Notes under the pieces: model-generated | What the model was told of the DNA's origin: nothing | What the model saw: the letters and a program-made list of their open reading frames with translations, nothing else | Database searches by the model: none | Translations under genes and position numbers: made by a program | Source: an uncultured Acidobacteriota bacterium | GTDB lineage: Bacteria; Acidobacteriota; Vicinamibacteria; Vicinamibacterales; CAVVIG01 | NCBI GenBank assembly: GCA_963722395.1 | Contig: CAVRLS010000013.1 | Location: 129,896-193,895 of the forward strand | DNA: 64,000 nucleotides | Direction of reading: 5' to 3' | Part shown: one piece after another, positions 19,701 to 59,922 of the stretch | Layout: every line of letters begins with the position of its first letter | Numbering within the stretch: position 1 is the stretch's first letter

Positions 19701-21166
19701 CACGTCTTGGCGCTCGGGAACATCACCGCTTCGAAGCCGCCGGGAAGCCGTTCGTCTATCTCGTGCCGAGCGCCGCGATCTTCGCGCTCGACGCCGGCCG
19801 CCGACGCGGTGCTGCAGGCGCTCGGGTCCGGGCCGCAGTCCCGCGACGAGCTCGCTGACGACTGTCTACCGGCCGATCTTCGGCCGACGAGGAGCTGGAC
19901 GCCACGGTCGACGAGCTGGTCACGGTGCGGGCGATCGGCCCGATCGCGCCGCCGCAGCCGATGCCGAAGATCCTGCCGCTGACAGCCGTTCCCGCTCGAC
20001 GACGATGGTGCTCAACGTGACCAACCAGTGCAACCTCGCGCTGCACCTACTGCTACGAGTACGGCGAGGACAAGATCGTCGACACCGAGAACGGCAAGAA
20101 GCCGAAGTTCATGACCGAGGAGACGGCGCGCGGCAGAGCGTCGACTTCATGCTCAAGGAGTCGGGCGACAACCAGGTGCGCCCACCTCACGTTCTTCGGC
20201 GGCGAGACGCTGATGAACTTCCCGGTGCTGAAGCAGACCATCGCCTACGCGCGGCAGCGGGCGGCGGAGGTCGGCAAGGAGGTCGACTTCAGCCTGACGA
20301 CCAACGCGACGCTGCTGCAAGCCGGAGATCATCGAGTTCCTCGTCGAGAACGACGTCGGCGTCACCATCTCGATCGACGGTCCGCCGGAGATGCAGGACA
20401 AGTTCCGCGTCTTCCACAACGGCACCGGCAGCTACGACATCGTGGCGCCGAAGATCAAGGAGCTGCTGCAGCAGCACCGCAACCGCCCGATCGGCGCGCG
20501 CGTCACGCTGACCGTCGGCAACCTCGACGTCACGCGCATCTACAGGCACCTGACCGAGGAGTTCGGCTTCCGCGAAGTCGGCTTCGCGCCGGTCACCACC
20601 GTCGTCGAAGCGCGACTACGCGCATCGACGAGCAGGGCTTCGACGACGATGCTCGACGCAGTTCCGCGCGCTGGCCGAGGAGTTCCTGGATGCGGCGGTC
20701 GAAGGGCCGTCATCACGGCTTCTCGAACGTCAAGGAGACGCTCGAGGAGATTCACAAGGGGATGAGCAAGGCGTATCCCGTGCGGCGCCGGCACTCGGGC
20801 TGATGGGCGTGTCCACCGACGGCGACGTGGCGCTGTGCCACCGCTTCGCCGGCTCCGACGACGCACAAGCTCGGCACCGTGCGCGACGGCATCGACCGCG
20901 CGGCGCAGGCGGCGTTCCTCGACACGCATCACGTCGCCGACAAGACCGACTGCAGCACCTGCTGGGCGCGCCCGGTCTGCTCGGGCGGCTGCTACCACGA
21001 GGCGCACACGCGCTACGGCGACACGACCAAGGCCAACCTGCACTACTGCGACTGGATCCGCGGCTGGACCGACGTCTGCCTGCAGATCTACGGCGAGCTC
21101 GCGGAGCGCAACCCCGCGTTCCTCGCGCAGTTCGATCGCGAGCCGACGGCCGAGAAGGTCAGCTAG
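19697..21166 (+). pseudogene. qhpD: radical SAM/SPASM peptide-crosslinking maturase, frameshifted as assembled
   Basis: MTRLGAREHHRFEAAGKPFVYLVPSAAIFALD. Radical-SAM site VLNVTNQCNLA.CTYCYEYGE. HLTFFGGETLMNFPVLKQTIAYAR, FSLTTNATLL, ISIDGPPEMQDKFRVFHNGTGSYD. SPASM end CGAG..MGVSTDGDVALCHRF and DCSTCWARPVCSGGCYHEAH..HYCDWIRGW. Pieces lie in ORFs 19666.., 20111.., 20391.., 20803.., 20879..21166. Confidence 0.85.
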
Positions 21167-21179
21167 CACCGAGGAGATC

Positions 21180-21548
21180 ATGAGACATCTGAAGGCAATC
21201 AATCAGAAGGCGGCTCGCATCGAGCAGTACGTCGAAGCGCAGCAGGAGGCGATTGCCGCCGCGGGCGACGGACGTCGTCGCGCTGCAGCGCGGCGGCCGC
21301 CGCAGCAGCCGGCCGGCCGCACATCCCGCTCGGCTGCTCGCTGGTCTTCTCGCCCGGCTGGGAAGTCGGATCGCACCGGCGGCACGGCCGGTCTCTGTCA
21401 GCCGGTCGAGCGCGACCTGTTCGACTGCCACATCGGCTGCTACTGGCCGGCGCAGGTGCCGGACCAGCTCAATCACGCCCCCGACTGGACCACCAAGTGC
21501 GCGGCCGCCCAGAAGGACTGGCGCAAGATCGACCTCGTCTTCCCGTAA
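21180..21548 (+). CDS. qhpC: quinohemoprotein amine dehydrogenase gamma-subunit precursor (CTQ/thioether peptide); internal compensated frame excursion
   Basis: RBS gaggag. Leader MRHLKAINQKAARIEQYVEAQQEAIAAAG. The core reads ..GCSLVFSPGWEV (other frame, ~21330-21366), then RTGGTAGLCQPVERDLFDCHIGCYWPAQVPDQLNHAPDWTTKCAAAQKDWRKIDLVFP. Cys/Glu/Asp/Trp spacing matches QHNDH gamma (see finding). Confidence 0.85.
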   Translation: MRHLKAINQKAARIEQYVEAQQEAIAAAGDGRRRAAARRPPQQPAGRTSRSAARWSSRPAGKSDRTGGTAGLCQPVERDLFDCHIGCYWPAQVPDQLNHAPDWTTKCAAAQKDWRKIDLVFP

Positions 21549-21568
21549 GGTCAGGAGCCGGATCAGCC

Positions 21569-22745
21569 ATGAGAGTTTCGTTCGGTTTCACACGCTGGCC
21601 GTCGCGCTCGCGCGTGTCCGCGCTGCTGGCGCCGCTCGGCGCCCAGGGCGAAGGCCAGGCGCCGGTGTCGGCCGGCAACGGCACGCTGTACGTCGGCATC
21701 GTTCCCGGACCACTTCTGGATGATCGACGAGGCCACCGCCACGATCACCGGGAAGATCCCGTTCACGTCCGGCATGCCCCGGCGCACGTCGCTGTCGCGC
21801 GATCGCACCCGCTTCTACACCGTCGAGGCGCAGCATGGAGAAGGTCGAGATCATCGACATCGCGTCGCGCAAGACGATCGACACGTTCACGCTGCAGCGA
21901 GGGCGAACAGCAAGGTCCGCATCAAGAGCGCTCGAGCCCGATCCGACGCACCGCTTCGTGATGATGGTCACCCGCACCGCGCACCGAAGCACATCGACCG
22001 CTGGGAGATCGGGCCGTCGGCGCTCGTGCAGTACGACCTCGCGCACGCACAAGATCGCGCGCACGCATCCCGTGGCCGAACGGCGAGGAGCGCGAGAACG
22101 CCAACGATCCAGTTCTCGCCCGACGGCAAGCTGATGTACCTGTTCAGCGAGCAGGACGTCCTGATCTACGAGACCACCGACGTTCACGCAGGTCGACAAG
22201 TGGGAGCTCTCGAAGCCGGTCGAGGAGGGCTTCGGCGCGCTTCGAGTTCGGTCAGATCGACGCCGTCAACGACGAGCCCGGCTTCTACACCGCGCATCTT
22301 CACACGTGCAGGATCCGGTGCAGAACCGCCGCATGATGGGCATCGGCCGCGTCAACCTGGCGGCCAAGACGGTCGACTTCTACACCCTCGGTCCGGCGAC
22401 GCAGGTCGGGCTTCACGATGGCGCCCGAGCCGCAAGGTGGCCTACGGCCTGATGTCAGCGAGATCGGCCACTACGAGTTCTGGAAGTTCGACCTCGAGGG
22501 ACGAGCGGGTCGCCGCGCGCGCCGAGTTCGAGGGCCGCCCGCGCATGTCGCTCGAAGACCAGCTCGAACGGCAAGGTGCTCTACATCTACAACGCCGGCG
22601 AGACGATCGACCTCTACGACGCCGACGACCTTCAAGTTCATGAAGACGATCGACCTCGACGGCGACATGACCACCGACATGTTCGTCGTTCCCGGTCCGG
22701 CGTCCGGCACGAGCCGACCACCTCGCGCCGAAGGTCGCACGATGA
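21569..22745 (+). pseudogene. qhpB: quinohemoprotein amine dehydrogenase beta subunit (beta-propeller), frameshifted as assembled
   Basis: RBS aggag, then MRVSF... signal. Propeller-like pieces across frames: GNGTLYVGIVPGP, MIDEATATITGKIPFTSGMPRRTSLSRDRTRFYTVEA, MEKVEIIDIASRKTIDTFTL, IQFSPDGKLMYLFSEQDVLIYETT, HYEFWKFDLE, VLYIYNAGETIDLYDAD, FKFMKTIDLDGDMTTDMFVVPGP. The exact stop is uncertain. Confidence 0.7.
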
Positions 22746-24491
22746 TCGATCCGCGACCTGCGCCGCGCGCTCCGGTTCGTGGCCCCGTACTGGCGGCGGC
22801 TGGCGCTGGTGCTGCTGCTCAGCCTGCTCAGCACCGCGCTGTCGCTTGTATCTGCCGCTGCTCTCGCGCGACTTCTTCGACCGCGCGCTGCTCGGGCGCG
22901 ACCCGTCCTGCGCTGCGTCCGGATCGTCGCTGCTGTTCGCGGGCGTCACCTCGTCGGCTTCGTCGCTCAACGTCGTCAGCGGCCTGCGCTACACGCGCGT
23001 GTCGGCCGACATCCTGTTCGACATGCGGCTGGACGATGTACCGCCACCTGCAGCGGCTGTCGCCGCGCTTCTACGCGCGCACGCGGCTCGGCGACATCAT
23101 GTCGCGCATCAACAACGACATCGGCGAGATCCAGCGCGTCGCCGCCGAGGCGGCGCTGGCCTGGGTCGGCAACGTGCTGTTCCTCGTCGGCACCGTCGGT
23201 GATGCTCGCCTGGCTCGACCTGCGGCTGTTCCTGCTGACCACGTGCACGGCGCCGTTCGGCCTCTGGGCGCTGCGTGCACTACCGCCGGCGGCTCGAGGG
23301 CAGGTCGCGCACGCTGCGCGAGACGCAGCGCCGACATCGGCAGCTTCCTGATCGAGACGCTCCAGGCGCATGCGGCTGGTCGTCACTTCGCAACGCGCAG
23401 GAGCGCGAGGTCGACGCGCTTCCGCAGGCGGAACGACGCCTTCATCGACGCGCTGATGTCGATGCAGATGGCTGTCGTACCTGTCGGGCGGCCTGCCTGG
23501 GCTGCTTCTGTCGGCGGGCACCGGCATGGTGTTCGTCTACGGCGGGCTGCGCGTGATCGACGGCGACGCTGACCGTCGGCACCTTCGTCGCCTTCATGGC
23601 CTACCAGATGCGCTTCCTGCCGCCGCTCCAGGCGCTGATGGGGCTGTACGCGAGCGTCGCGACGGCGCGGGTGTCGCTGCGGCGCGTCGCGGAGATCCTC
23701 GAGGCCCCGGTCGAGGTCGCAGGAGCGCCCGACGCCGGTGTCGCCATCTCCGTGCGCGGGCGCCTCGAGTTCGACAACGTCACGTTGTCGTTCGACCGCG
23801 GCCGTGCCGGTGCTCGACCAGCTGTCGTTCGCGGCCGACCCCGGCGAGGTGCTTGCCATCGTCGGGCCCGAGCGGCAGCGGCAAGTCGACGATCGCCGAT
23901 CTGTTGGTCCGCCTGCTCGATCCCGACGACGGTATCGTCCGGCTCGACGGCCACGACCTGCGACGTCTCCGGCTGCGCCGACCTGCGGCGCCACGTCGCC
24001 GTCGTCGAGCAGGACCCGTGCATGCTGCACGCCTCGATCGCCGACAACATCCGCTACGCCGCGCCCGAGGCAACCGACGCCGAGGTGCGGCGGCGGCGCG
24101 GCAGGCGGCGCTCGAGCCGTTCATCGCAGCCTTGCCGCAGGGCTACGACACCGTCGTCGGCGAGCGCGGCGCGGCGCTGTCGGCCGGCGAGCGGCAGCGT
24201 ATCGCGACCGCCCGGGCGTTTCTCGCCGATCCGGCGGTGCTCATCCTCGACGAGCCGACGGCGGCGCTCGATCCGGTGTCCGAGCGCGAGGTGATCGACG
24301 GGTACGAAGCGGTGATGCGCGGCCGCACGACGATCGTCATCACGCATCGGCTCGACGTGGCAAGCCGCGCCGACCGGGTGCTGGTGCTGGATGGATCGAG
24401 GCTGGTGGAGCAGGGGGCCCCAGCCGAACTGGCGCTCCGCGATGGGCGCTATGCCAACCTCTTCCCGGCGCAGCATGCGCAGGCACACTGA
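22742..24491 (+). pseudogene. qhpF: ABC exporter (fused TMD-NBD, type I) of the qhp cluster, frameshifted as assembled
   Basis: [105 protein letters not shown]. Walker A region [16 protein letters not shown] (read across a break), [34 protein letters not shown]. The last break is near 24100. Confidence 0.8.
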
Positions 24492-25176
24492 GCCGTCCGG
24501 CGCGGGCGTTCGCATTGCGGTCATCGACAGTGGCGTCCACGCCGCTCATCCGCACATAGAAGGAGTAGCGGGCGGGGTAGCGATAGGGGCGGGTGGGGCG
24601 CAGTCGGACGACTTCGTCGACCGGATCGGCCACGGCACGGCGGTCATGGCGGCCATCAAGGACCATGCTCCAGCCGCTGCGTGCTACGCCGTCCGTATCT
24701 TCGACTCGCGGCTCACTGCCTCGGCGTCGACGCTGATTGCAGCCATCGACTGGGCCATCGGCGCGCGCGTGCATCTGATCAACCTGAGCCTTGGGTCGTC
24801 CAATCCGTCGCACGAGGAGGCGTTCACCGGCGCCGTGGCACGCGCCGAGGCCGCTGGCGTCGCTCTGGTTTCCGCGCGAGACGATCAGGGCGTGTGGTGG
24901 CTGCCAGGCCGCTTGCCGGGCGTCGTGCAGGTTCAGTCCGACTGGGAATGCTCTCGCGGTGACTTGCGGGTCGTCCGCCTCGACGGGCAGCGCGTCTTTC
25001 GCGCCTCGGGCTTTGCCAGGCCGATTCCTGGAGTCGACCCTCGTCGCAACCTCCACGGCGTCAGCTTCGCGGTGGCCAACCTGACAGGCCTCCTTGCCAG
25101 AGCCATGAGTCTTGCGCCAGAGCTGTCGACTATCGCCGTGCTCGACAGGCTCGAGCGCACCGGCGTCGCTGTCTGA
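24475..25176 (+). CDS. qhpE: small subtilisin-like serine protease (QhpE-type leader peptidase)
   Basis: Intact 233 aa. Asp region VRIAVIDSGV, His region DRIGHGTAVMAAI, Ser region HGVSFAVANLTGLLA. Overlaps the qhpF stop by 17 nt. Confidence 0.75.
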   Translation: MRRHTEPSGAGVRIAVIDSGVHAAHPHIEGVAGGVAIGAGGAQSDDFVDRIGHGTAVMAAIKDHAPAAACYAVRIFDSRLTASASTLIAAIDWAIGARVHLINLSLGSSNPSHEEAFTGAVARAEAAGVALVSARDDQGVWWLPGRLPGVVQVQSDWECSRGDLRVVRLDGQRVFRASGFARPIPGVDPRRNLHGVSFAVANLTGLLARAMSLAPELSTIAVLDRLERTGVAV

Positions 25177-25189
25177 CGCGTGTGCGAGC

Positions 25190-25350
25190 GGGATGCAGCT
25201 GTCGACCTTCAGATCGCCGACAAAAGGGGCGCCGATGGTCGCACCGTTGATCGTGAGGGTCCACCACGTTGTCATACCAGCCGTAATAGGCCGGCGTGAC
25301 GCTGGCGCCGAATCCCAGCTCGGGATAGCTGGGAAGCAGCTGGGGGCCAT
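25190..25350 (-). pseudogene. internally deleted relic of a paralogue of the 25544..26434 gene
   Basis: DNA 25267-25346 aligns with 26281-26360 (..gtcgtaccagccgtcaaaggccggggtgacgct.. vs ..gtcataccagccgtaataggccggcgtgacgct..). DNA 25241-25268 aligns with 26058-26089. The ~190 bp between these blocks in the intact gene is missing. Peptide traces QLLPSYPELGFGASVTPAYYGWYDN and WWTLTINGATIG. No signal peptide, start or C-terminus. Confidence 0.7.
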
Positions 25351-25477
25351 GCCGCTGGAAACATCAATAAAACGGCGGTTTTTGATCGATTCCTGCGAGG
25401 ACGCCCAGAATGCGTGGGGAGATTTCCCCGGAGCTAGCGGGTTTTCACGTATCCGGAATCGGATAGCGATGGCGGGA

Positions 25478-25520
25478 AAGACAAAACGGGCCTCCCCGCG
25501 TCGCGGAGAGGCCCGTCTTT
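25478..25520 (-). terminator. rho-independent terminator of the 25544..26434 gene
   Basis: Minus strand: acgggcctcuccgcg-a-cgcggggaggcccgu followed by uuugucuuu. Confidence 0.7.
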
Positions 25521-25543
25521 CAGATCCAACGACTGCGGACGTC

Positions 25544-26434
25544 TTACTTGACGTTGACCTTGATCATGGCGGTCGTCCAGCAGCACGCGGTCGCGCCGCC
25601 CCCCTTTTCGGAGTAGTCGGTCAGAAGGACGTGCACGATGTAGTCGCCAGGCTTGTCGAAGGTGACCGTGCCCGAGGCCTTGCCGGCGAAAGCCTCCATC
25701 GGCTTGCCGCCCTTGCTGGCGGTGAAGTGGAAGCCCTCGGACTTCACGTTGCCGGGCCCGCGGTATTTGGTGATTTCGGCTTCGACGACCGGAGGCGTGC
25801 GGGTCATCGCCGCATTGGTGCCGCTCGAGTAAAGCGCATCGTCTTCCGCCCAGAGTTCGAGCGGCATCGGCACGTTGACCGTAGCCGTCTTCGAAATGGC
25901 GGAGGCGACCGTTGCCACCGGATTCTGGATGGCGGGGCCGCCTTCGGTGAAGCGCAGGACCGGCGGCACGTTGTACTTGCCGTTGGGTGATTCTTCGGAC
26001 GACTTCTGCGGCGTGATGTTGAAGTCGGGGCTCATGATCAGGCCGATGCGTGACGTGACGCCGTTGACCGTGAGCGACCACCACAGACGTTCGGTTGCGC
26101 CGAACGCCTTCGGGACGGTGATCGTGAACATGCCGAAGTTGCGGTTCGGCATGAAGTAGGTCGGCTGGCCTCGATCCGGATCGCCAGGCTCGAACTTGTT
26201 GTTCGGGCCGATTGGGATCTCGACATTGACGTTCCAGTTGCGGTTGTAGTAGCCGATCAGGAAGGTATGCGTGCCGTCCGGGTTGTCGTACCAGCCGTCA
26301 AAGGCCGGGGTGACGCTTGCCCCGAATCCCAGCTTTGGGCTGCTCGGAAGGAGCTGGCCCTGGGCCGAAACCATTGCACCGCCGGCGGCGAGCGCGGCAA
26401 CCGTCGCAAGGCGCAGAATCGTTCGTGAATTCAT
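25544..26434 (-). CDS. secreted hypothetical protein (partner of the PHM-like monooxygenase?)
   Basis: Intact 296 aa. Signal peptide MNSRTILRLATVAALAAGGAMVSAQG. No family recognised. C-terminal ..GGGATACCWTTAMIKVNVK. Confidence 0.6.
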   Translation of the reverse strand: MNSRTILRLATVAALAAGGAMVSAQGQLLPSSPKLGFGASVTPAFDGWYDNPDGTHTFLIGYYNRNWNVNVEIPIGPNNKFEPGDPDRGQPTYFMPNRNFGMFTITVPKAFGATERLWWSLTVNGVTSRIGLIMSPDFNITPQKSSEESPNGKYNVPPVLRFTEGGPAIQNPVATVASAISKTATVNVPMPLELWAEDDALYSSGTNAAMTRTPPVVEAEITKYRGPGNVKSEGFHFTASKGGKPMEAFAGKASGTVTFDKPGDYIVHVLLTDYSEKGGGATACCWTTAMIKVNVK

Positions 26435-26551
26435 GCTGACTCTCTACCGAAGAAGGTGTTCCGGGAGTTAATACCGAGCCGCCTGTATGTCATGCGGCAA
26501 GCGGGTCGATTGTAACCGAGGTAAAGGGCGCGGAAAACCATAAATGTCGAC

Positions 26552-26586
26552 AAAAAAGGGGACCGGAGCATTCGCTCCGATCCCCT
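26552..26586 (-). terminator. rho-independent terminator of the PHM-like gene
   Basis: Minus strand: ggggaucggagc-gaau-gcuccggucccc followed by uuuuuug, 29 nt after the stop at 26615. Confidence 0.75.
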
Positions 26587-26614
26587 TGTTCCGTCCGGCT
26601 CGGTTAGAGCGGGC

Positions 26615-28027
26615 TTACTGCTGCTGCTGGGTGGCCGCGGCCGGCTTGACGCCGTTCGTGACACCCTCGCCGTACTTCGCGACGCGCTCGGCGTACTCGG
26701 CGTCGTTCAGGTAGACGACGTTCATCCAGGCGTGCGCCATCTCGTCGACCGTGCGGTCGCCGTAACCCACCCACTGTTCCGGGTCGGGGTTGGCCTTGTT
26801 CGCCTTCGTGTTGTCGTAGAAGGCGGTGACGTGAATGATGGTGCCCTTCGGGAACACCGGCGAGGCCTCATCCTTGTAGATGTAGTTGGTCATCCAGTTG
26901 AAGTTGAAGTCCTTCACGTAGGAGATGACCTGGCTGCGGCCGTCCGGGAAGATCGCCTCGACCTGCATCGCCTTGCCACGCAGGTGGAAGTGCGGCTGGA
27001 AGTTGGTGATGATGGTGTTCTCACGCAGGACGGTGAAGCCCTCCGTGTGTGCCACCGAGTTCGGCGGAATGTCGAGACCGGCCGTGCCGTTCTTCAGGCC
27101 GCTGAAAGCCACGAGGTAGCTGCGCTTGGTCGGCTCTTCGCCCTTCTTGTAGAGCCACAGGCCGATTTCCGAACCGCCCTTGATTTCCTCGCCCATGGCG
27201 TGAACGTGCTGGTCCCAGGAGATTTTTTCACCTGGCATGATCAGCTTGCCGGTGCCGTCCAGGTAGCGGTCGTAGCCCTTGCCGATCGCCCATTCCATGA
27301 TCTGGGGACGACGGTTGACCAGTTCAGCGGCCTGCTGGGCAGGGGTGAGAGCGGCGCCGCCCGGCCGACCACCGCCGATGCCGGTGTTCACGGCAGCGGT
27401 GTTCTCGGGGTTCAGGACGTGATACGCGATCGAGTGATGGAGAATCTTGCGGGCGTTGAGGTTGGTCGGACGAATCTCGACCATCCGGACCCAGCGGGGC
27501 TCGGTGACCGGAATATCGCTGACCGGACGCCACCACTGGTCCTGCGAGACCGCAGGCATGGTGTATTCGGGCGACTTCACCACGAGGTCGGGTGCGCCGT
27601 AGCCGTCGCGCTCACCCTGCCAGAACAGCGAGGTGGCGACCGGCTTGGCCTTGAAGTCGGCCGGGTTGCCCTCGAGGGCGCCGCCGTCGACCCACGCCAC
27701 GACCGTCGCGACCTGCTCATCGGTCAGCGACATGTCGTTCTTGAACTTCGTGACGCCGACACTGCGGTCGATGTGCCACGGCGGCATCTGGCGCGATTCA
27801 ACGCGCTGCTTGATCGAGCGGGCCCACGGGCGCGCATCCTGGTAGGTGACCAGGGACATCGGGCCGATCGAGCCGGGTTCGTGGCACGACTGGCACTTGG
27901 ACTGGAAAATGGGCGCTACGTCCTTGCTGAACGTCACCTGCTTGCCCTGCTGCGCGAACGCAGCGCCGGGCAGCGCGAGGAATGCGCCGACGGCGATTCC
28001 AAGGTGGAGCTTCGAACCATGCATCAT
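26615..28027 (-). CDS. periplasmic c-type haem + PHM/DBH-like (copper type II ascorbate-dependent monooxygenase fold) protein
   Basis: Intact 470 aa. Signal peptide, then haem motif CQSCHEPGSIGPMSL. Ordered His/Met candidates KILHHSIAYH, WDQHVHAMG, FQPHFHLRGKAM and DEMAHAWM mirror the HH..H / HxH..M copper ligands of PHM. Confidence 0.6.
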   Translation of the reverse strand: MMHGSKLHLGIAVGAFLALPGAAFAQQGKQVTFSKDVAPIFQSKCQSCHEPGSIGPMSLVTYQDARPWARSIKQRVESRQMPPWHIDRSVGVTKFKNDMSLTDEQVATVVAWVDGGALEGNPADFKAKPVATSLFWQGERDGYGAPDLVVKSPEYTMPAVSQDQWWRPVSDIPVTEPRWVRMVEIRPTNLNARKILHHSIAYHVLNPENTAAVNTGIGGGRPGGAALTPAQQAAELVNRRPQIMEWAIGKGYDRYLDGTGKLIMPGEKISWDQHVHAMGEEIKGGSEIGLWLYKKGEEPTKRSYLVAFSGLKNGTAGLDIPPNSVAHTEGFTVLRENTIITNFQPHFHLRGKAMQVEAIFPDGRSQVISYVKDFNFNWMTNYIYKDEASPVFPKGTIIHVTAFYDNTKANKANPDPEQWVGYGDRTVDEMAHAWMNVVYLNDAEYAERVAKYGEGVTNGVKPAAATQQQQ

Positions 28028-28429
28028 TTAGGCTCCTCTTTCGTCTTCCTATTGCGAACGACCCGTTTACCAAACCGCACCAAACAGACGGGCGGATGAC
28101 TTCAGCGGTATCTTCTGGTCGGCGCCGGAGATCCGCAACACCGCGAATTCCCGACGACTCCCATCGAACGCCGAGGGACTTATCCCTCTGGATGCAGATT
28201 ATTCCCCCGCGACCGTTCGGGCGCAATATCCAATATCAAAGAGGGCTAAAGGAGGAGCTTGCCGGCGCGCGGGCCGTCTCGACGGCGTGGTACACTCTTC
28301 GGCCGGTACAGGTCCCGAAATATTTCGTCCGATACAGCAACCAACACGGCCACACCCGCCGTGCGCCCCCACCGGGAGGGGCACGCGCGCGCTCCGGATG
28401 TAAAGCATGGAAGGTAGGATTGTAGGGGT

Positions 28430-31252
28430 ATGACGAACTGGCAGGGGGTAACCGGGGTCAACCGCGCCTATGTGCTCGAGTTGTACGACCGGTACCTGAA
28501 AGACCCGAATGCGGTCGATGCCGAAACCCGTGCCCTGTTTGCGACCTGGACTCCGCCAGCCGAGGGGGCAGCAGACGCACCCGTGGCGCTTGGTGAGTCG
28601 GCGCTCCAGAAGGCCGTCGGCGCCGTCAACCTGGCGCAGTCCATCAGACGCTACGGACACCTCGCCGCCCAGCTCGACCCCCTGGGGTCGACACCTGTCG
28701 GCGATCCATCCCTCCTCGCGGCCACGCACGGCGTGACCGATGACGACCTCCGGGCACTTCCCCCGACGCTCATTTCCTCGCCGCTGGCCACTGGCGCGAC
28801 GAACATGCTCGATGTCGTGAACAGGTTCCGCGCGGTCTACTGCGCAACCTCCGGTCACGACTACTCGCACGTGTTCGTGCACGAAGAGCGGCAGTGGCTG
28901 CGCACGGCCGTGGAACAGGGGCAGTTCCGCGCTCCGCTCGATCCCATCGACCCGGTGTCGCTCCTCGACCGGCTCTCGCAGGTCGAGTCGTTCGAGCGCT
29001 TCCTGCACCGTGCCTTCCAGGCCAAGACCCGCTTCTCGATCGAGGGGCTGGACATGACGGTGCCGATCCTCGACGAGATCATCGGCGACGCAGGTGAAGC
29101 CGGCGCCAGCTCGATGTTCATCGGCATGGCCCATCGCGGGCGCCTGAACATCATGGCGCACGTCCTCAACAAGCCCTACGCGCAGATCCTGGCCGAGTTC
29201 AAGGACCCGCTGAAGAAGGACCACTTCCAGGAAGACATGTCCTGGACCGGTGACGTGAAGTACCACGCCGGCGCCAGCCGCGCCATCGAGCATGGCCGCG
29301 AACTGCACATGGTCGTCTCGATGCCGCCGAACCCGAGCCATCTCGAGGCGGTCGATCCGGTGGTGACCGGCATGGCCCGAGCCGCCGGCACGACCGTCGA
29401 CGCGGCCGGTCCGGCCAGGTTCGATCCCACCAGGTCGATCCCGGTCCTGATCCATGGCGACTGCGCGTTCCCAGGGCAGGGCATCGTGGCCGAAACGCTG
29501 AACCTCGCCAGACTCGCCGGCTACAACACCGGCGGCACGATCCACATCATCGTCAACAACCAGCTCGGGTTCACCGCGATGGCGCGAGAATCGTTCAGCA
29601 CCTCGTATGCGAGCGGCCTGGCGCGCGGTTTCAAGGTGCCGATCGTCCACGTCAACGCCGACGATCCGGAAGCCTGCGTCGAAGCGGCGCGTCTGGCCAT
29701 TGCCTACCGCAACAGGTTCAAGCGCGACTTCCTCATCGACCTTGTCGGCTACCGGCGTCACGGCCACAACGAAGGTGATGAGCCGGCGTTCACGCAGCCG
29801 TTGATGTATCAGGCGATTGCCACCCACCCGACCGTGCGCGAGATCTTCGCGACCGCGCTCGTGGCACGAGGGGTCGTGACGGCGGCGCAGGCCGACGGGA
29901 TGAGCACAAAGTACCTGGGCGCCCTGCAGGCCGCGCTCGATGGCCTCGAGCCAGAGGTCGACTTCGTCGAGCCGATTCCGCCCACGCCACCGTCCGGCGC
30001 CGCCGGCAGGGTGAAGACCGGCGTACCGCTCGAAGGGCTCGGAGAACTCAACAGCGCGCTGCTGGCGCTGCCCGGGGGCTTCAACGTCCACAAGAAGCTG
30101 GTGCGTGGCCGCGAGCGCCGCGCCCAGATATTCGCGGAGCCTGGCGAACGGTCCGTTGACTGGGCCACTGCCGAGGACCTGGCCTACGCCTCCATCCTCG
30201 CCGAAGGCGTCAGCATCCGCCTCACCGGTGAAGACGTGCAGCGTGGCACCTTCAGTCATCGACACGCCGTGCTGCACGACCCCGGCACCGGGAAGACGTA
30301 CACGCCCCTGCAGGGCCTGCCGCAGGCGCGAGCCGCCTTCGAGATCCACAACTCGCCGCTCACCGAACTGGCGACGATCGGATTCGAGTTCGGCTACAAC
30401 GTGCAGGAGCCGTCGCGGCTGGTCATCTGGGAGGCGCAGTACGGCGACTTCATCAACGGCGCCCAGATGATCCTCGACGAATTCCTGCTATCGGCCCGCA
30501 GCAAGTGGGGCCAGCGTCCGTCGATGGTGCTGCTGCTGCCGCACGCGCATGAAGGCGCCGGTCCGGAGCACTCCAGCGCGCGCCCCGAGCGTTTTCTGCA
30601 ACTGGCCGCCGACATCAACGTCCGCATCGCCAACTGCACGAGCGCGGCGCAGTTCTTCCACCTGATGCGGCGCCAGGCGGCGCTGCTGCTGGTCGATCCG
30701 CTGCCGCTGGTAGTGCTCACGCCAAAGAGCCTGCTGCGCCACCCGTTCATGGCGTCCACCCCGCAGCAACTTGCCGATGGCCGCTTCCACCGCATGCTGG
30801 ACGACGAGTGGGCGAGGGGGCATGCCTCCGAGGTACGCCGCGTGCTGCTCTGCACGGGCAAGATGTCGGTCGACCTGCTGACGAGCGAGAAGCGCGAGGC
30901 GGCCCGCAATGTTGCGATCTGCCGCCTCGAACAGCTCTATCCGCTGAACCTCGACGATCTCCGCACGCTGCTCAACAGCTACACGAACGCTGAAGAGATC
31001 GTCTGGGTCCAGGAAGAACCCGAGAACATGGGCTACTGGGACTTCATGCGTTCGAACATCGAAGCCGCGGCCGCGGGCCGCACGGTGCGGCTGATCGCCC
31101 GTCCCCGCAGCGCCAGCCCGGCGGAAGGGTCGTCCTCTCGCCACTCGCACCATCAGCAGATCCTGGTCGAGACGGCCCTCGCGCCGACAGCGGCGAAGGC
31201 GTCCGGGCGCTCGCGCGGCGCCAAGCCGGCTGCCGAGAAGATTGCCGGATAG
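28430..31252 (+). CDS. sucA: 2-oxoglutarate dehydrogenase E1 component
   Basis: Intact 940 aa. YGHLAAQLDPLG, MAHRGRLNIMAHVLNKPY, HGDCAFPGQGIVAETLNL..GYNTGGTIHIIVNNQLGFT, YRRHGHNEGDEP, GEDVQRGTFSHRHAVLHD, LLLPHAHEGAGPEHSSARPERFLQL. Confidence 0.95.
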   Translation: MTNWQGVTGVNRAYVLELYDRYLKDPNAVDAETRALFATWTPPAEGAADAPVALGESALQKAVGAVNLAQSIRRYGHLAAQLDPLGSTPVGDPSLLAATHGVTDDDLRALPPTLISSPLATGATNMLDVVNRFRAVYCATSGHDYSHVFVHEERQWLRTAVEQGQFRAPLDPIDPVSLLDRLSQVESFERFLHRAFQAKTRFSIEGLDMTVPILDEIIGDAGEAGASSMFIGMAHRGRLNIMAHVLNKPYAQILAEFKDPLKKDHFQEDMSWTGDVKYHAGASRAIEHGRELHMVVSMPPNPSHLEAVDPVVTGMARAAGTTVDAAGPARFDPTRSIPVLIHGDCAFPGQGIVAETLNLARLAGYNTGGTIHIIVNNQLGFTAMARESFSTSYASGLARGFKVPIVHVNADDPEACVEAARLAIAYRNRFKRDFLIDLVGYRRHGHNEGDEPAFTQPLMYQAIATHPTVREIFATALVARGVVTAAQADGMSTKYLGALQAALDGLEPEVDFVEPIPPTPPSGAAGRVKTGVPLEGLGELNSALLALPGGFNVHKKLVRGRERRAQIFAEPGERSVDWATAEDLAYASILAEGVSIRLTGEDVQRGTFSHRHAVLHDPGTGKTYTPLQGLPQARAAFEIHNSPLTELATIGFEFGYNVQEPSRLVIWEAQYGDFINGAQMILDEFLLSARSKWGQRPSMVLLLPHAHEGAGPEHSSARPERFLQLAADINVRIANCTSAAQFFHLMRRQAALLLVDPLPLVVLTPKSLLRHPFMASTPQQLADGRFHRMLDDEWARGHASEVRRVLLCTGKMSVDLLTSEKREAARNVAICRLEQLYPLNLDDLRTLLNSYTNAEEIVWVQEEPENMGYWDFMRSNIEAAAAGRTVRLIARPRSASPAEGSSSRHSHHQQILVETALAPTAAKASGRSRGAKPAAEKIAG

Positions 31253-31273
31253 ATCTCGATTCCGAAGGATTGT

Positions 31274-32518
31274 ATGCCTGCACACATCGTAGTACCCGAA
31301 GTCGGTGAGTCGATCGTCGAAGCCCGCGTGGCTCGTTGGATGAAGAACGTCGGCGACGTCGTGGCGCTGGGCGATCCCCTGGTCGAACTCGAGACCGACA
31401 AGGTCAACCTCGAAGTGCCGTCGCCGGTGGCCGGGGTGTTGAGCCGCATCGACCACCAGGCTGGTGCCGACGTCAAGATTGGCGAAGTGCTCGGCATGGT
31501 CGACGAGTCGGGCGCTGCCGCAGCGGCGCCGCCCGCGGCGGCACCGGCTGATGCGCCTGCACCGGCCGCTGCTGCTGTCGCCAAGGGCGCCGCCGAGGGC
31601 GACAAGACCCGCGCAACACCGACGGCGAAAAAGGCCGCCGAACAGAACGACGTGAACATCGCCAGCGTCAAGGGAACCGGCGTGGCCGGCCGCGTCATGA
31701 AGAGCGACGTGGAGCAGGCTGTGAAGGGCACTGCGCCGGTGAAAGCCGCCGCGTCGACGCCGGCTCCGGCTCCGGCCGCTCCGGCCGTGCGTCCGCCCGC
31801 ACCTCGCGCCGCATCCGGCGACCGCTCCGAGGAGCGGGTGCGCATGTCGAAGCGCCGCGCCACCATCGCGCGTCGCCTCGTCGAGGCGCAAAGCACCGCG
31901 GCAATGCTCAGCACCTTCAACGAAGTCGACATGTCCGCGGTGATGGCGCTGCGCGAACGCCGCAAGCTGACGTTCAAGGAGAAGAATGGCGTCAACCTCG
32001 GCCTGTCGTCTTTCTTCGTGAAGGCGGCCATCGGCGCGCTCAAGGCGATTCCGCGCGTGAATTCGGAGTTGCAGGGCGACGAGATGGTGCTGAAGCACTA
32101 CTACGACATCGGCGTCGCCGTTGGCGCCGCCGAGGGGTTGGTGGTGCCGGTGCTGCGCGACGCCGACAGGATGTCGTTCGCCGAAGTCGAGCAGCAGGTC
32201 CGCTTCTACGCCAAGGCGGCCGAGGAGGGCACCCTCTCGCTGGCCGACATCAAGGGCGGAACCTTTACCATCACCAACGGTGGCGTGTTCGGCTCATTGC
32301 TGAGCACGCCGATCCTGAATCCGCCGCAGGTTGGCATCCTGGGCCTGCACGCCATCAAGGACCGCCCGGTCGCGGTCGGCGGCGAGGTGGTGATCCGCCC
32401 GATGATGTACATCGCGCTCACCTACGATCACCGCATCATCGACGGCTCTGAGGCCGTCCGCTTCCTCGTGAAGGTCAAGGAACTGATCGAAGATCCGGGC
32501 GCGCTGCTCATCGACTAG
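31274..32518 (+). CDS. sucB: dihydrolipoyllysine-residue succinyltransferase (E2 of 2-oxoglutarate dehydrogenase)
   Basis: Intact 414 aa. Lipoyl domain [15 protein letters not shown], Ala/Pro linkers, E3-binding [33 protein letters not shown], catalytic [17 protein letters not shown]. Confidence 0.95.
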
Positions 32519-32549
32519 ACGCGCTCACGCGCTGCGCGCGTTCGCGCGT

Positions 32550-32615
32550 AGTCACAAGTCACAGATCGCAAGTCGCACGACGGGCCGGCTGGAGAATCGT
32601 CAGCCGGCCCGTCGT
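32550..32615. repeat. heptamer array (AGTCACA x2, GATCGCA, AGTCGCA) followed by a perfect 16-bp stem hairpin
   Basis: Four 7-nt units at 32550-32577. Hairpin cacgacgggccggctg-gagaatcgt-cagccggcccgtcgtg at 32575-32615. Lies between convergent sucB and the NHL gene. No U-tract. Confidence 0.7.
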
Positions 32616-32663
32616 GGCCGTCCCACCGGGCTTGACCAGCCCCTCCCGACCTTCCCACCCTCC

Positions 32664-33869
32664 CTACGGCGACACTGACGCTGCGCCGAGACCGGTGTAC
32701 CTGAACTTCTGCACCCGCTTCCCCTCGTAGCTCTCGGTGACGAAGAGATCGCCCTTCGAGTTCACCGCCAGGTTGTGCGCGCCGTAGAACTGCCCGGCCC
32801 AGTGGCCGTGACCGCCAAAGGTGCTCACCACCTGCAGCGTCTGACGGTCCAGCACGTAGATCAACTGGTTCGTGCCGTCGTTCACGTAGAGGAACTGCTG
32901 CTGCGGGTCGGTGGAGAAGCCGACGTCCCACACCGAGCCGCTGCCGAAGGTGTCCTTCGCAATCACCTGTTCACGGACGAAGGTGCCGTCCTTCCTGAAC
33001 ACCTGCAGGCGATCGTTGGTGCGATCGCAGACGTACACCAGGCCGTCGTTCGAGATGCGCACGGCGTGGACAATCCGGAACTGCGGTGCAGCCGGACCGT
33101 TCGGATCGTACTGGCTCGGTCGCACCTCGTTCTGCACCGCGCCGCTGAACGGACCCGGGAGCTTCTCGCCCTGCCGCGTGAACCAGCCATCGTCGGGTCG
33201 GTTGCCGTAGGCACCCCAGTGGCGCTTGTAGGCGCCGGTCGTCGCGTCGAAGACGATGACGCGGTGATTGACGTAGCCATCGGCGACGTAGAGCTCGTTC
33301 GCGGGCCGATCGATCGTGACGTTCGCGGGCGCACCCAGGTTCTCGGTGTCGTTGCTGCCCTGGCCCTTGCCCTGATGGCCAATCTGCAGCAGGAAGCGGC
33401 CCTGCCGCGTGAACTTCAGGATGTGCGAGTCCTTGTCGCCACCGGCACCTAGCCAGACGTTGTCCTGGGCGTCGACGTAGATGCCATGCTCGAGCTGAGG
33501 CCACTCGTAGCCGGCCCCGGGGCCGCCCCACGACGACAGCAGCGTTCCGTCTGCATCGAACTCGAGTACCGGCGGCGCCGCCTTCCAGATGGCGCGGGTC
33601 TCGTTCGGCTGCAGCGTTGATGGCCGCTGCACGATCCAGACGTGGTCGCGCGCATCGACGGCGACACCGGCCACCGCGCCGATGATCCAGCGGTTGGGCA
33701 GAGGCTTCGGCCAGAACGGATCGACCGCGAACGTGGGAACCTGCCGATCGGCTACCCGCGACTGTGCGAACGGCACGGCACGACCTGTCATCAGCAGGGC
33801 GAGTGGGAAGAACACGGACAGGAGTAGCCGGGGCCAATGGCGGCTGAGCCGCGAGCGCATGGGAAGCAT
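32664..33869 (-). CDS. NHL-repeat six-bladed propeller, peptidyl-alpha-hydroxyglycine alpha-amidating lyase (PAL)-like
   Basis: Intact 401 aa with an N-terminal signal/TM. Repeated NHL-like blades: VAVDARDHVWIVQR, HGIYVDAQDNVWL, NVTIDRPANELYVADGYVNHRVIVFD, HAVRISNDGLVYVCDRTNDRLQVF, HNLAVNSKGDLFVTESYEGKRVQKF. Confidence 0.65.
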   Translation of the reverse strand: MLPMRSRLSRHWPRLLLSVFFPLALLMTGRAVPFAQSRVADRQVPTFAVDPFWPKPLPNRWIIGAVAGVAVDARDHVWIVQRPSTLQPNETRAIWKAAPPVLEFDADGTLLSSWGGPGAGYEWPQLEHGIYVDAQDNVWLGAGGDKDSHILKFTRQGRFLLQIGHQGKGQGSNDTENLGAPANVTIDRPANELYVADGYVNHRVIVFDATTGAYKRHWGAYGNRPDDGWFTRQGEKLPGPFSGAVQNEVRPSQYDPNGPAAPQFRIVHAVRISNDGLVYVCDRTNDRLQVFRKDGTFVREQVIAKDTFGSGSVWDVGFSTDPQQQFLYVNDGTNQLIYVLDRQTLQVVSTFGGHGHWAGQFYGAHNLAVNSKGDLFVTESYEGKRVQKFRYTGLGAASVSP

Positions 33870-33922
33870 GAGCCAGAGGATACGTCAAAAGGAAATCCGC
33901 CCTCGAGCCGATATCTCACTCG

Positions 33923-35110
33923 ATGCACACCGCTGCTGACGCTGACAATCCCGCGTTCGAATCCCGGCTGTTCCCGTTCGCGGATGATACCGTCATCGAC
34001 ACTCCGACGCTCATCACCGGCCTCCTCGAGGGAGGCAAGGGCATCAGCGACCTGATTTTCTCGCCCGGCCGGCCGCCGCAGGTGGAGCAGCACGGCGAAC
34101 TGGTGCCGGTTGCCGTCCCCGGCCTCGAACTGCTGACCCCGGAGATGACCGCACGAATCGCGCGCGACCTGATGGGCGGCAATGCCCAGGTGCTCGGTTC
34201 GCTCGAGAATGACGGCTCCGCCGACTTCTCCTACTCCGTTCCTTCTCGCACCAGGTTTCGCGTCAATGCCTTCAAGCAGCGCGGCACCTACGCCATCGTC
34301 ATGCGGGTGATCGCGTCGCGCATTCCGAGCCTCGCCGAACTGAAGCTGCCGTCGGCGCTGACCGACGTTGCGTCGCTCAAGACCGGCATCGTGCTCGTGA
34401 CCGGACCGACCGGTTCGGGCAAGTCGTCCACGCTTGCCGCCATCATCGACCTGATCAACGAGACGCGTGCCGAGCACATCCTCACCATCGAGGACCCGAT
34501 CGAGTTCCTGCACACACACAAGAAGGGCACGATCCACCAGCGGCAACTGCACGCCGATACGCCCAGCTTTGCCCTGGCACTTCGCGCGGCACTGCGGCAG
34601 GCGCCGAAGGTGATCCTGGTTGGCGAGATGCGTGATCGTGAGACGGTGGAGATCGCCCTCACGGCTGCCGAGACCGGACACCTGGTGTTCTCGACCCTCC
34701 ACACCATCGACGCGTCCAAGACGGTGGAGCGCATCATCGGTTCGTTCCCGGCCTCCGATCAGCAGGTGGTGCGCACGCGCCTGGCTGGCGCCTTCCGCTA
34801 TTTCATCGCGCAACGCCTCATCCCGCGCAGGGAAGGGGGACGTGTGGCGGTGCTCGAGATCCTGAAGTCGACCATGCGTACCAGGGAGTACATCGAGCAG
34901 GGGGAGAAGGAAGGGAAGACGCTCCTCGACGCCATCAGGGACGGCGGACTCGACGGGATGCAGTCGTTCGATGGCGAAATCGAGCGGCTGGTGCGCGAGG
35001 GCGTGCTGACGGTGCCGACGGCGATGCTCTATGCCACGAATCCGGGCAACCTCGCCGTGCAGCTTGCCGACTTCAGCGAGGACTCCATCGAGTCGATGAT
35101 CGAGCGCTAG
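33923..35110 (+). CDS. pilT: type IV pilus retraction ATPase PilT/PilU family
   Basis: Intact 395 aa. ISDLIFSPGRPPQVE, Walker A VTGPTGSGKSSTLAAII, ILTIEDPIEF, Walker B/Asp box VILVGEMRDRETV, His box GHLVFSTLHT. Confidence 0.85.
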   Translation: MHTAADADNPAFESRLFPFADDTVIDTPTLITGLLEGGKGISDLIFSPGRPPQVEQHGELVPVAVPGLELLTPEMTARIARDLMGGNAQVLGSLENDGSADFSYSVPSRTRFRVNAFKQRGTYAIVMRVIASRIPSLAELKLPSALTDVASLKTGIVLVTGPTGSGKSSTLAAIIDLINETRAEHILTIEDPIEFLHTHKKGTIHQRQLHADTPSFALALRAALRQAPKVILVGEMRDRETVEIALTAAETGHLVFSTLHTIDASKTVERIIGSFPASDQQVVRTRLAGAFRYFIAQRLIPRREGGRVAVLEILKSTMRTREYIEQGEKEGKTLLDAIRDGGLDGMQSFDGEIERLVREGVLTVPTAMLYATNPGNLAVQLADFSEDSIESMIER

Positions 35111-59683: not shown

Positions 59684-59910
59684 CCAGCCGTGCAGGCTCT
59701 TGTAAACCTCGACCTGGGCCGGCCGGCCTGCCTTCGTGAACGCCGCCTTCAAGGTGTCCGTCGCAGCGGGCTGCCGCTGGTCGTCGTTCGAGGCCACGGC
59801 AACGTAGAGGCGGGCGCGGATCTTCGGGATGAGCAGATGCGGGCTGTTCGGCGTCTCGGTCACCAGACCACCGCCGTGAAACGAGCCGACCGCGCCACGC
59901 GGCTCGGCAC
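59684..59910 (-). pseudogene. relic fragment of a dienelactone-hydrolase paralogue
   Basis: Minus-strand reading ..PRGAVGSFHGGGLVTETPNSPHLLIPKIRARLYVAVASNDDQRQPAATDTLKAAFTKAGRPAQVEVYKSLHGW aligns with residues ..DRVGAVASFHGGGLVTQNPDSPHTQAAKTKAQFLVAIASNDDQRSPNDKNVLRETFAAANVPAEIEVYQNAAHGW of 62060..62923. Truncated at both ends. Confidence 0.75.
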
Positions 59911-59922
59911 GCCGCCGCGGTG

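Follow-up and report, generated by a model that had tools for sequence, protein, structure and literature searches.

Peptidylglycine α-hydroxylating monooxygenase (PHM), dopamine β-monooxygenase (DBH) and tyramine β-monooxygenase are treated as eukaryotic, ascorbate-dependent enzymes. Our literature search, in which coverage of subscription journals was incomplete, found no characterised bacterial cytochrome-c/PHM-like enzyme, partner protein or linkage to peptidyl-hydroxyglycine α-amidating lyase (PAL). Reviews of the evolution of PAM, the peptide-amidating enzyme (2019), and of PHM chemistry (2025) make no mention of prokaryotic homologues. For a bacterial pair of a hydroxylase and a lyase, a 2025 paper names PAL as the only similar lyase activity known to its authors and states that the sequences of the two lyases are not homologous (PMC12508155). 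Here, we analyzed a stretch of 64,000 nucleotides from an uncultured Acidobacteriota bacterium (contig CAVRLS010000013.1; hereafter, the window), in which the open reading frame (ORF) listing contains three genes of interest, all on the minus strand: a cytochrome c/PHM-like monooxygenase of 470 amino acids (aa; 26615–28027), a partner protein of 296 aa (25544–26434) and a PAL-like NHL β-propeller of 401 aa with a signal peptide (32664–33869). Their positions are those given in the original prediction, which was made from the DNA letters and their ORFs. Direct reading of the sequences placed Sec-type hydrophobic signals with AxA-like ends (AFA/QQ, VSA/QG and PFA/QS) on all three proteins, and the nearest database relatives come from metagenome-assembled genomes of Vicinamibacterales (Acidobacteriota).

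The comparisons described below establish the domain architecture of the 470-aa protein, the conservation of its haem and copper ligands, its association with the partner and its recurrent neighbours. We consider it likely that the 470-aa and 296-aa proteins are the two subunits of a cytochrome-c-fed periplasmic copper monooxygenase whose substrate is not a glycine-extended peptide. PHM (PDB 1PHM/1OPM) and DBH (4ZEL), at ~13–16% identity, have the same two-domain β-sandwich core and the same six ligands in the same order with similar spacing (HH...H for CuH, HxH...M for CuM). Compared with these enzymes, the 470-aa protein adds an N-terminal c-type haem domain that appears to take the place of ascorbate dependence, is paired with a separate partner and is bacterial and presumably periplasmic; the disulfides and the DOMON domain of the animal enzymes are absent. 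It comes from a family that has radiated very widely in bacteria (1,570 clusters at 50% identity, E<=1e-30), and its features that are new relative to the animal enzymes are a predicted covalent haem as a built-in electron entry and a dedicated partner subunit.

Fold and predicted metal ligands of the PHM-like monooxygenase

The 470-aa protein comprises a signal peptide (residues ~1–25), a mono-haem class I cytochrome c domain (~30–125) and a catalytic core composed of a CuH-type β-sandwich (~145–300) and a CuM-type β-sandwich (~305–445). As a single sequence, it matched Pfam Cytochrom_C weakly (22.5 bits against a cut-off of 21.3) and Cu2_monoox_C below the Pfam cut-off of 23 (E=0.12, 12.2 bits), and neither a phmmer search of PDB nor NCBIfam gave a match. 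Because single-sequence searches were uninformative, we built a family profile from 50 full-length representatives with 30–47% identity to the 470-aa protein. This profile matched both catalytic domains of human DBH (4zel, E 1.1e-11) and of rat PHM (1phm/1opm, E ~3.6e-9). When the relatives were searched individually, 26 of the 50 matched Cu2_monoox_C at E<0.01, and some database sources already label relatives with this domain; the homology is thus not new to curators.

We also predicted the structure of the 470-aa protein with AlphaFold2 on an alignment of 88 sequences. The resulting model (pLDDT 87.8, pTM 0.85) has a helical N-terminal domain (helices 33–44, 62–78 and 103–114) followed by two β-sandwiches, and the top 31 Foldseek matches in PDB were all DBH or PHM (probability 1.0, E down to 8e-12). 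Profile and Foldseek searches accordingly agree on the two-domain β-sandwich arrangement of PHM/DBH-type monooxygenases, and the 470-aa protein has this fold, fused to a haem c domain and with both sets of copper ligands intact. The original prediction of a PHM fold, for which profile searches and structure prediction had been proposed as checks, was confirmed by both.

In the HMMER alignments to 1opm/1yjk and 4zel, H197 and H198 (27434–27439, minus strand, as are all codon positions below) correspond to the CuH ligands H107 and H108 of PHM, and H274 (27206–27208) to the third CuH ligand, H172. Likewise, H346 and H348 in the motif H346-F-H348 (26984–26992) correspond to the CuM ligands H242 and H244, and M430 (26738–26740) to the CuM ligand M314. 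The alignment of 50 sequences contains 17 invariant columns, which include C45, C48, H49, M81, H197, H274, H346 and H348, while H198 and M430 are at least 90% conserved; in the alignment of 88 sequences (A3), C45, C48, H49, M81, H197, H198, H274 and M430 are all invariant. By alignment and conservation, a CuH site of three histidines and a CuM site of two histidines and a methionine are therefore predicted. The haem c attachment motif CQSCH (C45-Q-S-C48-H49; 27881–27895) and the proposed axial ligand Met81 (27785–27787) are conserved in the alignments, and together with the helical domain and the signal peptide they give all the marks of a class I c-type cytochrome, so that haem binding is predicted as well. 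The ordered ligand pattern (HH...H...HxH...M) and the periplasmic c-type haem had both been anticipated from the window alone and hold across the family, as does the suggestion that the haem could replace ascorbate, a natural reading of a haem motif and Met81 that are invariant. However, a further HxH that had been considered at residues 274–276 was not supported, H276 being unconserved.

The residues that distinguish PHM proper (EC 1.14.17.3) were not found. PHM residues R240, N316 and Y318, which from the literature on the 1OPM structure we take to bind the carboxylate and backbone of peptidylglycine, are replaced by Q344, H432 and W434 in the profile alignment. Since these carboxylate binders are replaced, peptide amidation as such is unlikely, and judged by its residues the 470-aa protein is not a PHM in the narrow sense. 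The protein has two cysteines, both in the haem motif, and therefore lacks the disulfides found in the animal enzymes.

A word-indexed search with the 470-aa protein returned 7,968 significant matches, the best 120 of which were at 74–95% identity. In an exhaustive search of representatives at 50% identity, 14,604 matched at E<=1e-3, 8,444 at E<=1e-10 and 1,570 at E<=1e-30. Up to three tandem monooxygenase paralogues were counted per locus. Several architectures occur within the family. In some members, a thioredoxin-like (AhpC/TlpA-type) N-terminal domain precedes the cytochrome-c/PHM unit in one fused chain, possibly the reason why some sources name relatives 'thiol-disulfide isomerase'; others have two complete cytochrome-c/PHM units per chain, in P0132 additionally with EF-hand segments. 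The proteins with variant architectures are P0128, P0223, P0245, P0249, P0251, P0253, P0271 and P0132. Several relatives of ~550 aa are extended at their C terminus (by DUF3471 in P0298). In a Vicinamibacterales genome, three tandem monooxygenase paralogues (L001:9998-14788) have no adjoining partner gene, and partner genes are found elsewhere on the contig (U0Q55_14530 and U0Q55_14545); an unclassified JGI metagenome contig has four tandem paralogues, also with no adjoining partner gene (L167:8001-14666).

The partner protein

The 296-aa protein had been described as a secreted protein of an unrecognised family, and this description is consistent with its signal peptide and with the lack of a match in Pfam or NCBIfam. 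It has 1,866 homologues, all unnamed or 'hypothetical'. We examined 80 species-level loci that were the best matches to the monooxygenase alignment, and found that a partner homologue adjoins the monooxygenase gene in 68 of them. It is the next gene downstream in 53 loci and the next gene upstream in 15, and its strand is always that of the monooxygenase; the remaining loci were mostly partial matches or contig ends. Moreover, hmmsearch with a partner profile detected fusions to the enzyme in 5 of 150 representatives, in both orders. The partner precedes the enzyme in P0124 and follows it in P0136, P0138 and P0172, and in P0137 the enzyme is inserted between partner domain 1 and partner domain 2. 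Because adjacency is conserved and fusions occur in both orders, the enzyme and the partner appear to work as one unit. The evidence for a subunit-like association is strong, and the low weight that the original prediction had placed on the 296-aa protein underrated what these data mark as a dedicated partner.

The AlphaFold2 model of the partner (pLDDT 80) contains two β-sandwich domains after the signal peptide. A vicinal Cys284-Cys285-Trp286 motif (25577–25585, minus strand) is present as CCW in 80% of 75 diverse partners. Our guess is that the partner most likely serves in substrate binding or presentation. We rejected a copper chaperone as the leading idea, given that no histidine or methionine is conserved across the 75 partners and that the CC motif is found in only 80% of them.

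Four loci of close relatives (L002, L006, L170 and L173) contain two consecutive enzyme/partner pairs in the order C-P-C-P, where C denotes the monooxygenase and P the partner. The window retains a 95-nt remnant of a second partner gene (25249–25343, minus strand; tblastn, 25 aa at 84–92% identity), and a blastn comparison with L170 revealed two deletions in the window that removed the second monooxygenase (cytPHM2) and most of the second partner. The same junction was found in an independent Logan contig, in which the partner gene directly adjoins an S8 peptidase gene with no second pair.

A terminator had been claimed between the monooxygenase and partner genes, and the consensus scan and sequence reading both identified a strong intrinsic-terminator-like hairpin there (26556–26587, minus strand). 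Read from 26587 to 26556, it forms a 14-bp stem with 9 G-C pairs followed by TTTTTTG, directly 3΄ of the stop codon of the 470-aa protein, as a pattern match. The scan also marked a weaker hairpin 3΄ of the partner gene (25486–25499, minus strand; pattern match). In total, 3 terminator-like sites were obtained against 2.2 expected from shuffles, a count that is not significant, and only the first hairpin is notable, by its position and strength. No known RNA, including riboswitches, was found at E<=0.1 in 24500–34500, and the consensus scan found no sigma-70-type promoter in 25100–28500.

The PAL-like propeller and PQQ-type dehydrogenases near the module

The 401-aa protein (32664–33869, minus strand) was recognised from its ORF, its Pfam NHL matches and its comparison with PAL. 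We built a profile from the window protein and six homologues taken from monooxygenase loci; this profile matched rat PAL (3fvz) as one full-length stretch (E 2e-18, profile 22–337 against PAL 17–318), and TRIM-type NHL proteins matched it only repeat by repeat. For hhalign, the rat PAL sequence was compared with 3fvz (304 of 306 aligned residues were right) and used in its corrected version; the alignment had a probability of 99.2% and an E of 8e-20, with 25% identity over 279 columns. By both methods, the similarity extends over the whole length of the six-bladed PAL propeller. In the alignment, R82, H128, Y199, H268, R283 and H365 of the window protein correspond to R533, H585, Y654, H690, R706 and H786 of rat PAM, respectively, and all six are invariant in the 7 homologues. 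Following the structure literature, we take H585, H690 and H786 as the Zn ligands, Y654 as the catalytic residue and Arg706 and Arg533 as substrate-binding residues. Judged by these residues, the 401-aa protein is a genuine PAL homologue of the predicted Zn/Tyr/Arg carbinolamide-lyase type. This exceeds the original claim of a propeller of the PAL type, and the concern raised with it, that the PAL catalytic residues might be lacking, did not materialise.

There are also differences from PAL. The window protein is a stand-alone secreted protein that is not fused to a monooxygenase; the Ca2+-site residue D787 is replaced by Asn (N366) and is variable in relatives, M784 is replaced by Gly, and an insertion of ~20 residues lies between Y199 and H268. 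The other Ca ligands of PAL are backbone carbonyls. Furthermore, the window protein comes from a much expanded bacterial family that often forms tandem arrays and includes a sister type. We compared 20 NHL proteins of monooxygenase loci and found R533, H585 and R706 in all and H690 in all but one. Y654 was present in thirteen, twelve of which also had H786, and six had His at Y654 and Glu at H786. Propellers of this second type adjoin the monooxygenase module in five loci (L028:20248-21291, L056:18489-19652, L075:8664-9776, L077:5039-8146 and L083:11377-14492); with R533, H585, H690 and R706 kept, Tyr654 replaced by His and H786 by Glu, they suggest a different metal site or chemistry. On soil metagenome contigs, close relatives of the PAL-like gene of the window stand in tandem arrays of three or four paralogues (L115:4597-9774, L144:304-6852, L103:1280-4640 and others), which shows a large expansion of the family independent of the monooxygenase.

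We then considered whether the PAL-like gene is linked to the monooxygenase. As the original prediction stated, the two genes lie on the same strand, 4.6 kb apart, with sucAB between them. The 2-oxoglutarate dehydrogenase genes sucA (E1; 28430–31252) and sucB (E2; 31274–32518), identified from their ORFs and the Pfam annotation of orthologues in L002, L170 and L173, are on the plus strand, so that the PAL-like gene is convergent with sucB; they are outside the monooxygenase system. The gene arrangement in the window therefore gives no sign of co-transcription or of a bifunctional PAM unit, in which the two activities would be encoded or regulated together, and the PAL-like gene appears to be a separately transcribed neighbour. 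The order PilT-like ATPase, PAL-like, sucB, sucA, C, P is also found in L170 and L173. This shared order is uninformative on function, because the cytochrome-PHM and partner proteins of these loci are ~93% identical to those of the window.

Across 84 monooxygenase loci, 16 contained PAL-like genes within 10 kb (19 genes in total), and 68 did not. The nearest PAL-like gene was at most 700 bp from the module in 8 of the 16 loci, compared with 1.5 expected, and none of 20,000 simulations reached 8. The null model was uniform placement within the same flanks, and the test is thus independent of the number of PAL-like genes per genome; the PAL-adjacent cases include related loci (L053/L054 and L077/L083). 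PAL-like genes abut the module in L014 (743 bp), L026, L036, L053, L054, L075, L077, L080 and L083, and five of these nine cases within ~750 bp are on the module strand. The PAL-like gene therefore directly abuts the module in ~10% of loci. Conversely, we collected 80 metagenome loci with the PAL-like alignment (46–84% identity, 565 kb of flanks), and found no monooxygenase, partner or sucAB gene in their 105 flanks of at least 1.2 kb. The suggested co-occurrence of the two families was thus seen from the monooxygenase side but not from the PAL-like side. The proposed PHM–PAL link is partly supported: in a minority of lineages the two folds repeatedly occur side by side without forming an obligate pair, and in the window, with sucAB on the opposite strand, they give no indication of being one unit. 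If the reading of the 470-aa protein as a copper monooxygenase is correct, the recurrent juxtaposition makes the question of PHM-plus-PAL chemistry outside eukaryotes directly testable.

A second recurrent neighbour is a β-propeller dehydrogenase of the pyrroloquinoline quinone (PQQ) type (PF01011, E down to 1e-186), which occurred within 10 kb in 23 of the 84 loci. These genes scored under the cut-off of every NCBIfam subfamily. They were at most 700 bp from the module in 8 of 23 loci, compared with 3.2 expected (P=0.006), and seven of the eight were on the same strand. The arrangement is operon-like in L050:6825-11242 (PQQ-P-C) and L058:5692-10609 (P-C-PQQ), both on the same strand, and other same-strand, operon-like neighbours were found in L024:9653-14337, L081, L069, L066 and L028. 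Periplasmic PQQ-type enzymes commonly hand electrons to c-type cytochromes, and for this reason they are natural candidate donors to the fused haem. A homologue of the module-adjacent dehydrogenases (38–46% identical) is also found in the window, 32 kb from the module (~59900–61820, minus strand), in three pieces that overlap by a few bases, possibly through a frameshift.

Such an arrangement may resemble two known systems. Fungal lytic polysaccharide monooxygenases (LPMOs), with cellobiose dehydrogenase or an AA12 PQQ-dehydrogenase, follow the same logic: a copper oxygenase outside the cytoplasm receives single electrons from a haem domain, and a dehydrogenase of sugars or alcohols ultimately supplies them. 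The possible parallel here is the adjacency of PQQ-type dehydrogenases, as judged from gene context. In contrast to the two PHM-type copper sites of the window enzyme, LPMOs have a histidine brace in an unrelated fold, and their haem is of type b and on the dehydrogenase, whereas that of the window is of type c and on the oxygenase. In particulate methane monooxygenase (pMMO) with PQQ methanol dehydrogenase and cytochrome cL, the product of a copper monooxygenase is oxidised by a periplasmic PQQ enzyme; by analogy, electrons would return via c-type cytochromes here too. However, pMMO is an integral membrane enzyme of a fold unrelated to that of the window enzyme.

Proposed reaction, alternative explanations and surrounding genes

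We propose that the haem c would take single electrons from the periplasmic pool, that is, from soluble c-type cytochromes and, in some lineages, from an adjacent PQQ-type dehydrogenase. It would then reduce CuH (H197, H198 and H274), the role of ascorbate in animals, and CuM (H346, H348 and M430) would bind O2 and hydroxylate a C-H bond of the substrate. The substrate is presumably not a glycine-extended peptide, since the carboxylate-binding residues of PHM are replaced. The 296-aa partner would bind the enzyme and most likely bind or present the substrate. In some lineages only, a PAL-like lyase could cleave the C-N bond of the hydroxylated product and a PQQ enzyme could supply or recycle electrons; hydroxylation followed by lyase cleavage is thus a plausible downstream step in these lineages, and a non-defining part of the system. 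If this proposal is correct, it provides a bacterial version of an enzyme class in which the long-range electron transfer between CuH and CuM and the open and closed states are debated, in a disulfide-free protein whose haem is a possible spectroscopic handle. It would also mean that Vicinamibacterales and other abundant Acidobacteriota of soils have an oxygenase activity that has gone unrecognised.

Several observations weigh against a two-subunit copper monooxygenase of this kind. Copper and haem binding by the 470-aa protein are predictions from conserved residues. The partner retrieved only generic Ig-like, carbohydrate-binding-module-like and glycoside-hydrolase-accessory β-sandwiches with low TM in a Foldseek search of PDB, and it has no conserved His or Met across 75 diverse sequences. 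Distant Blastocatellia relatives (~35% identity) form arrays of three or four paralogues without a partner, and parts of the superfamily therefore do without it. The monooxygenase and the partner may be expressed at different levels because of the hairpin that separates their genes. In addition, the 80 loci are phylogenetically related and their counts are not independent, and the PQQ-type and PAL-like families are expanded in these genomes (as in the match to TIGR04528, 'acido-empty-quinoprotein'), which raises the chance of fortuitous proximity, although the within-flank position test controls for gene density.

The same data can be read differently with respect to the propeller. In this genome, the PHM-like enzyme and the PAL-like propeller might act in sequence as an ascorbate-independent bacterial counterpart of PAM, the former hydroxylating a position beside an amide or amine nitrogen and the latter converting the carbinolamide to an amide or amine and an aldehyde (e.g. 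glyoxylate). The catalytic residues are kept in both enzymes, both proteins carry signal peptides from which export can be read, and the genes share a strand at a distance of 4.6 kb, in an order that is also seen in L170 and L173. The abutting PAL-like genes in nine loci, eight of them within 700 bp, are well above uniform placement, and R533 and R706, which bind the substrate carboxylate in PAL, are kept in the PAL-like protein. However, R240, N316 and Y318 of PHM are not conserved, sucAB intervenes on the opposite strand and the relatives that share the order are too close (~93% identity) to be informative. Moreover, in 68 of 84 monooxygenase loci the surrounding 10 kb lack a PAL-like gene, none of the 105 flanks of the 80 PAL-like loci contains a monooxygenase, and the tandem arrays of PAL-like genes suggest independent roles. 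We therefore regard sequential action in this genome as unlikely. A scheme that further joins the PQQ-type dehydrogenase to the enzyme, partner and PAL-like lyase, as a redox-balanced periplasmic pathway of oxidative C-N cleavage, is in our judgement doubtful at best. In such a pathway, the copper enzyme would hydroxylate the carbon next to nitrogen at the cost of two electrons, the PAL-like enzyme would split the carbinolamide, and the PQQ enzyme would oxidise the freed aldehyde and return two electrons to the haem. If true, it would be an ascorbate-free bacterial counterpart, and possibly an ancestor, of the PHM-then-PAL amidation chemistry of animals, with which soil Acidobacteriota would mine organic nitrogen.

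The partner might instead be the substrate itself, with the enzyme hydroxylating one of its side chains (e.g. in Cys-Cys-Trp) to make a cofactor or cross-link, as in the action of MauG on methylamine dehydrogenase and of MbnH on MbnP. The pairing is strictly one-to-one, pairs were duplicated together in the C-P-C-P loci (L002, L006, L170 and L173), and the partner has conserved CCW and aromatic residues, no metal ligands and no recognised enzymatic fold. Nevertheless, stable fusions in both orders, one of which splits the partner around the enzyme, fit a permanent subunit better; the CC motif is missing in ~20% of partners, including the fused P0136, and the partner gene is absent from some loci with two or three enzyme genes; we consider a substrate role very unlikely. 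Similarly improbable, in our view, is that a protein with the PHM fold and metal sites is no C-H hydroxylase but an oxidase, a peroxide or superoxide scavenger, or an electron-transfer or copper-handling protein. This would agree with the loss of the PHM substrate-binding residues, with 75–95% conservation across Vicinamibacterales and a high copy number, as in core redox proteins, and with the thioredoxin-like fusions and the 'thiol-disulfide isomerase' names of some relatives. On the other hand, conservation of the full CuH and CuM sets, with the Met characteristic of the O2-activating site among them, extends to relatives at 30% identity, and every characterised member of the PHM fold with both sites that is known to us is a monooxygenase. 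We thus favor a haem-fed copper monooxygenase with a permanent partner subunit.

Beside the partner gene, the window contains a complete quinohaemoprotein amine dehydrogenase operon (18064–25158, plus strand), in the order alpha subunit, radical-SAM maturase, gamma subunit, beta propeller, ABC exporter and S8 peptidase. When set against the intact counterpart in the close relative L170, the alpha, radical-SAM, beta and ABC genes match as several pieces in different frames at 40–75% identity. Because these fragments lie among intact neighbouring genes that are 92–93% identical to those of L170, the operon is either decaying or locally mis-assembled. The S8 peptidase and the ABC transporter were considered as a peptide-maturation system for the monooxygenase and rejected, as they are qhpE and qhpF of this operon; the absence of the operon at the equivalent place in L173 also counts against such a role.

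Other neighbours of the monooxygenase loci were set aside. TonB-dependent receptors (12 loci), small secreted 'AHHS' proteins (8) and ABC ATPases (9) were neither consistently close nor specific, and several apparent conserved neighbour 'families' proved to be shadow ORFs that overlap the monooxygenase gene, this DNA being high in GC. The small secreted proteins of ~145 aa lie 1–9 kb from the module in the 8 loci (L011:7114-7557, L029:8396-8821, L042:4443-4916, L055:13672-14109 and 4 more). They are predicted to begin with His-His once the signal has been cleaved (...ALA/HHS...), a feature that recalls the copper proteins with a histidine brace.

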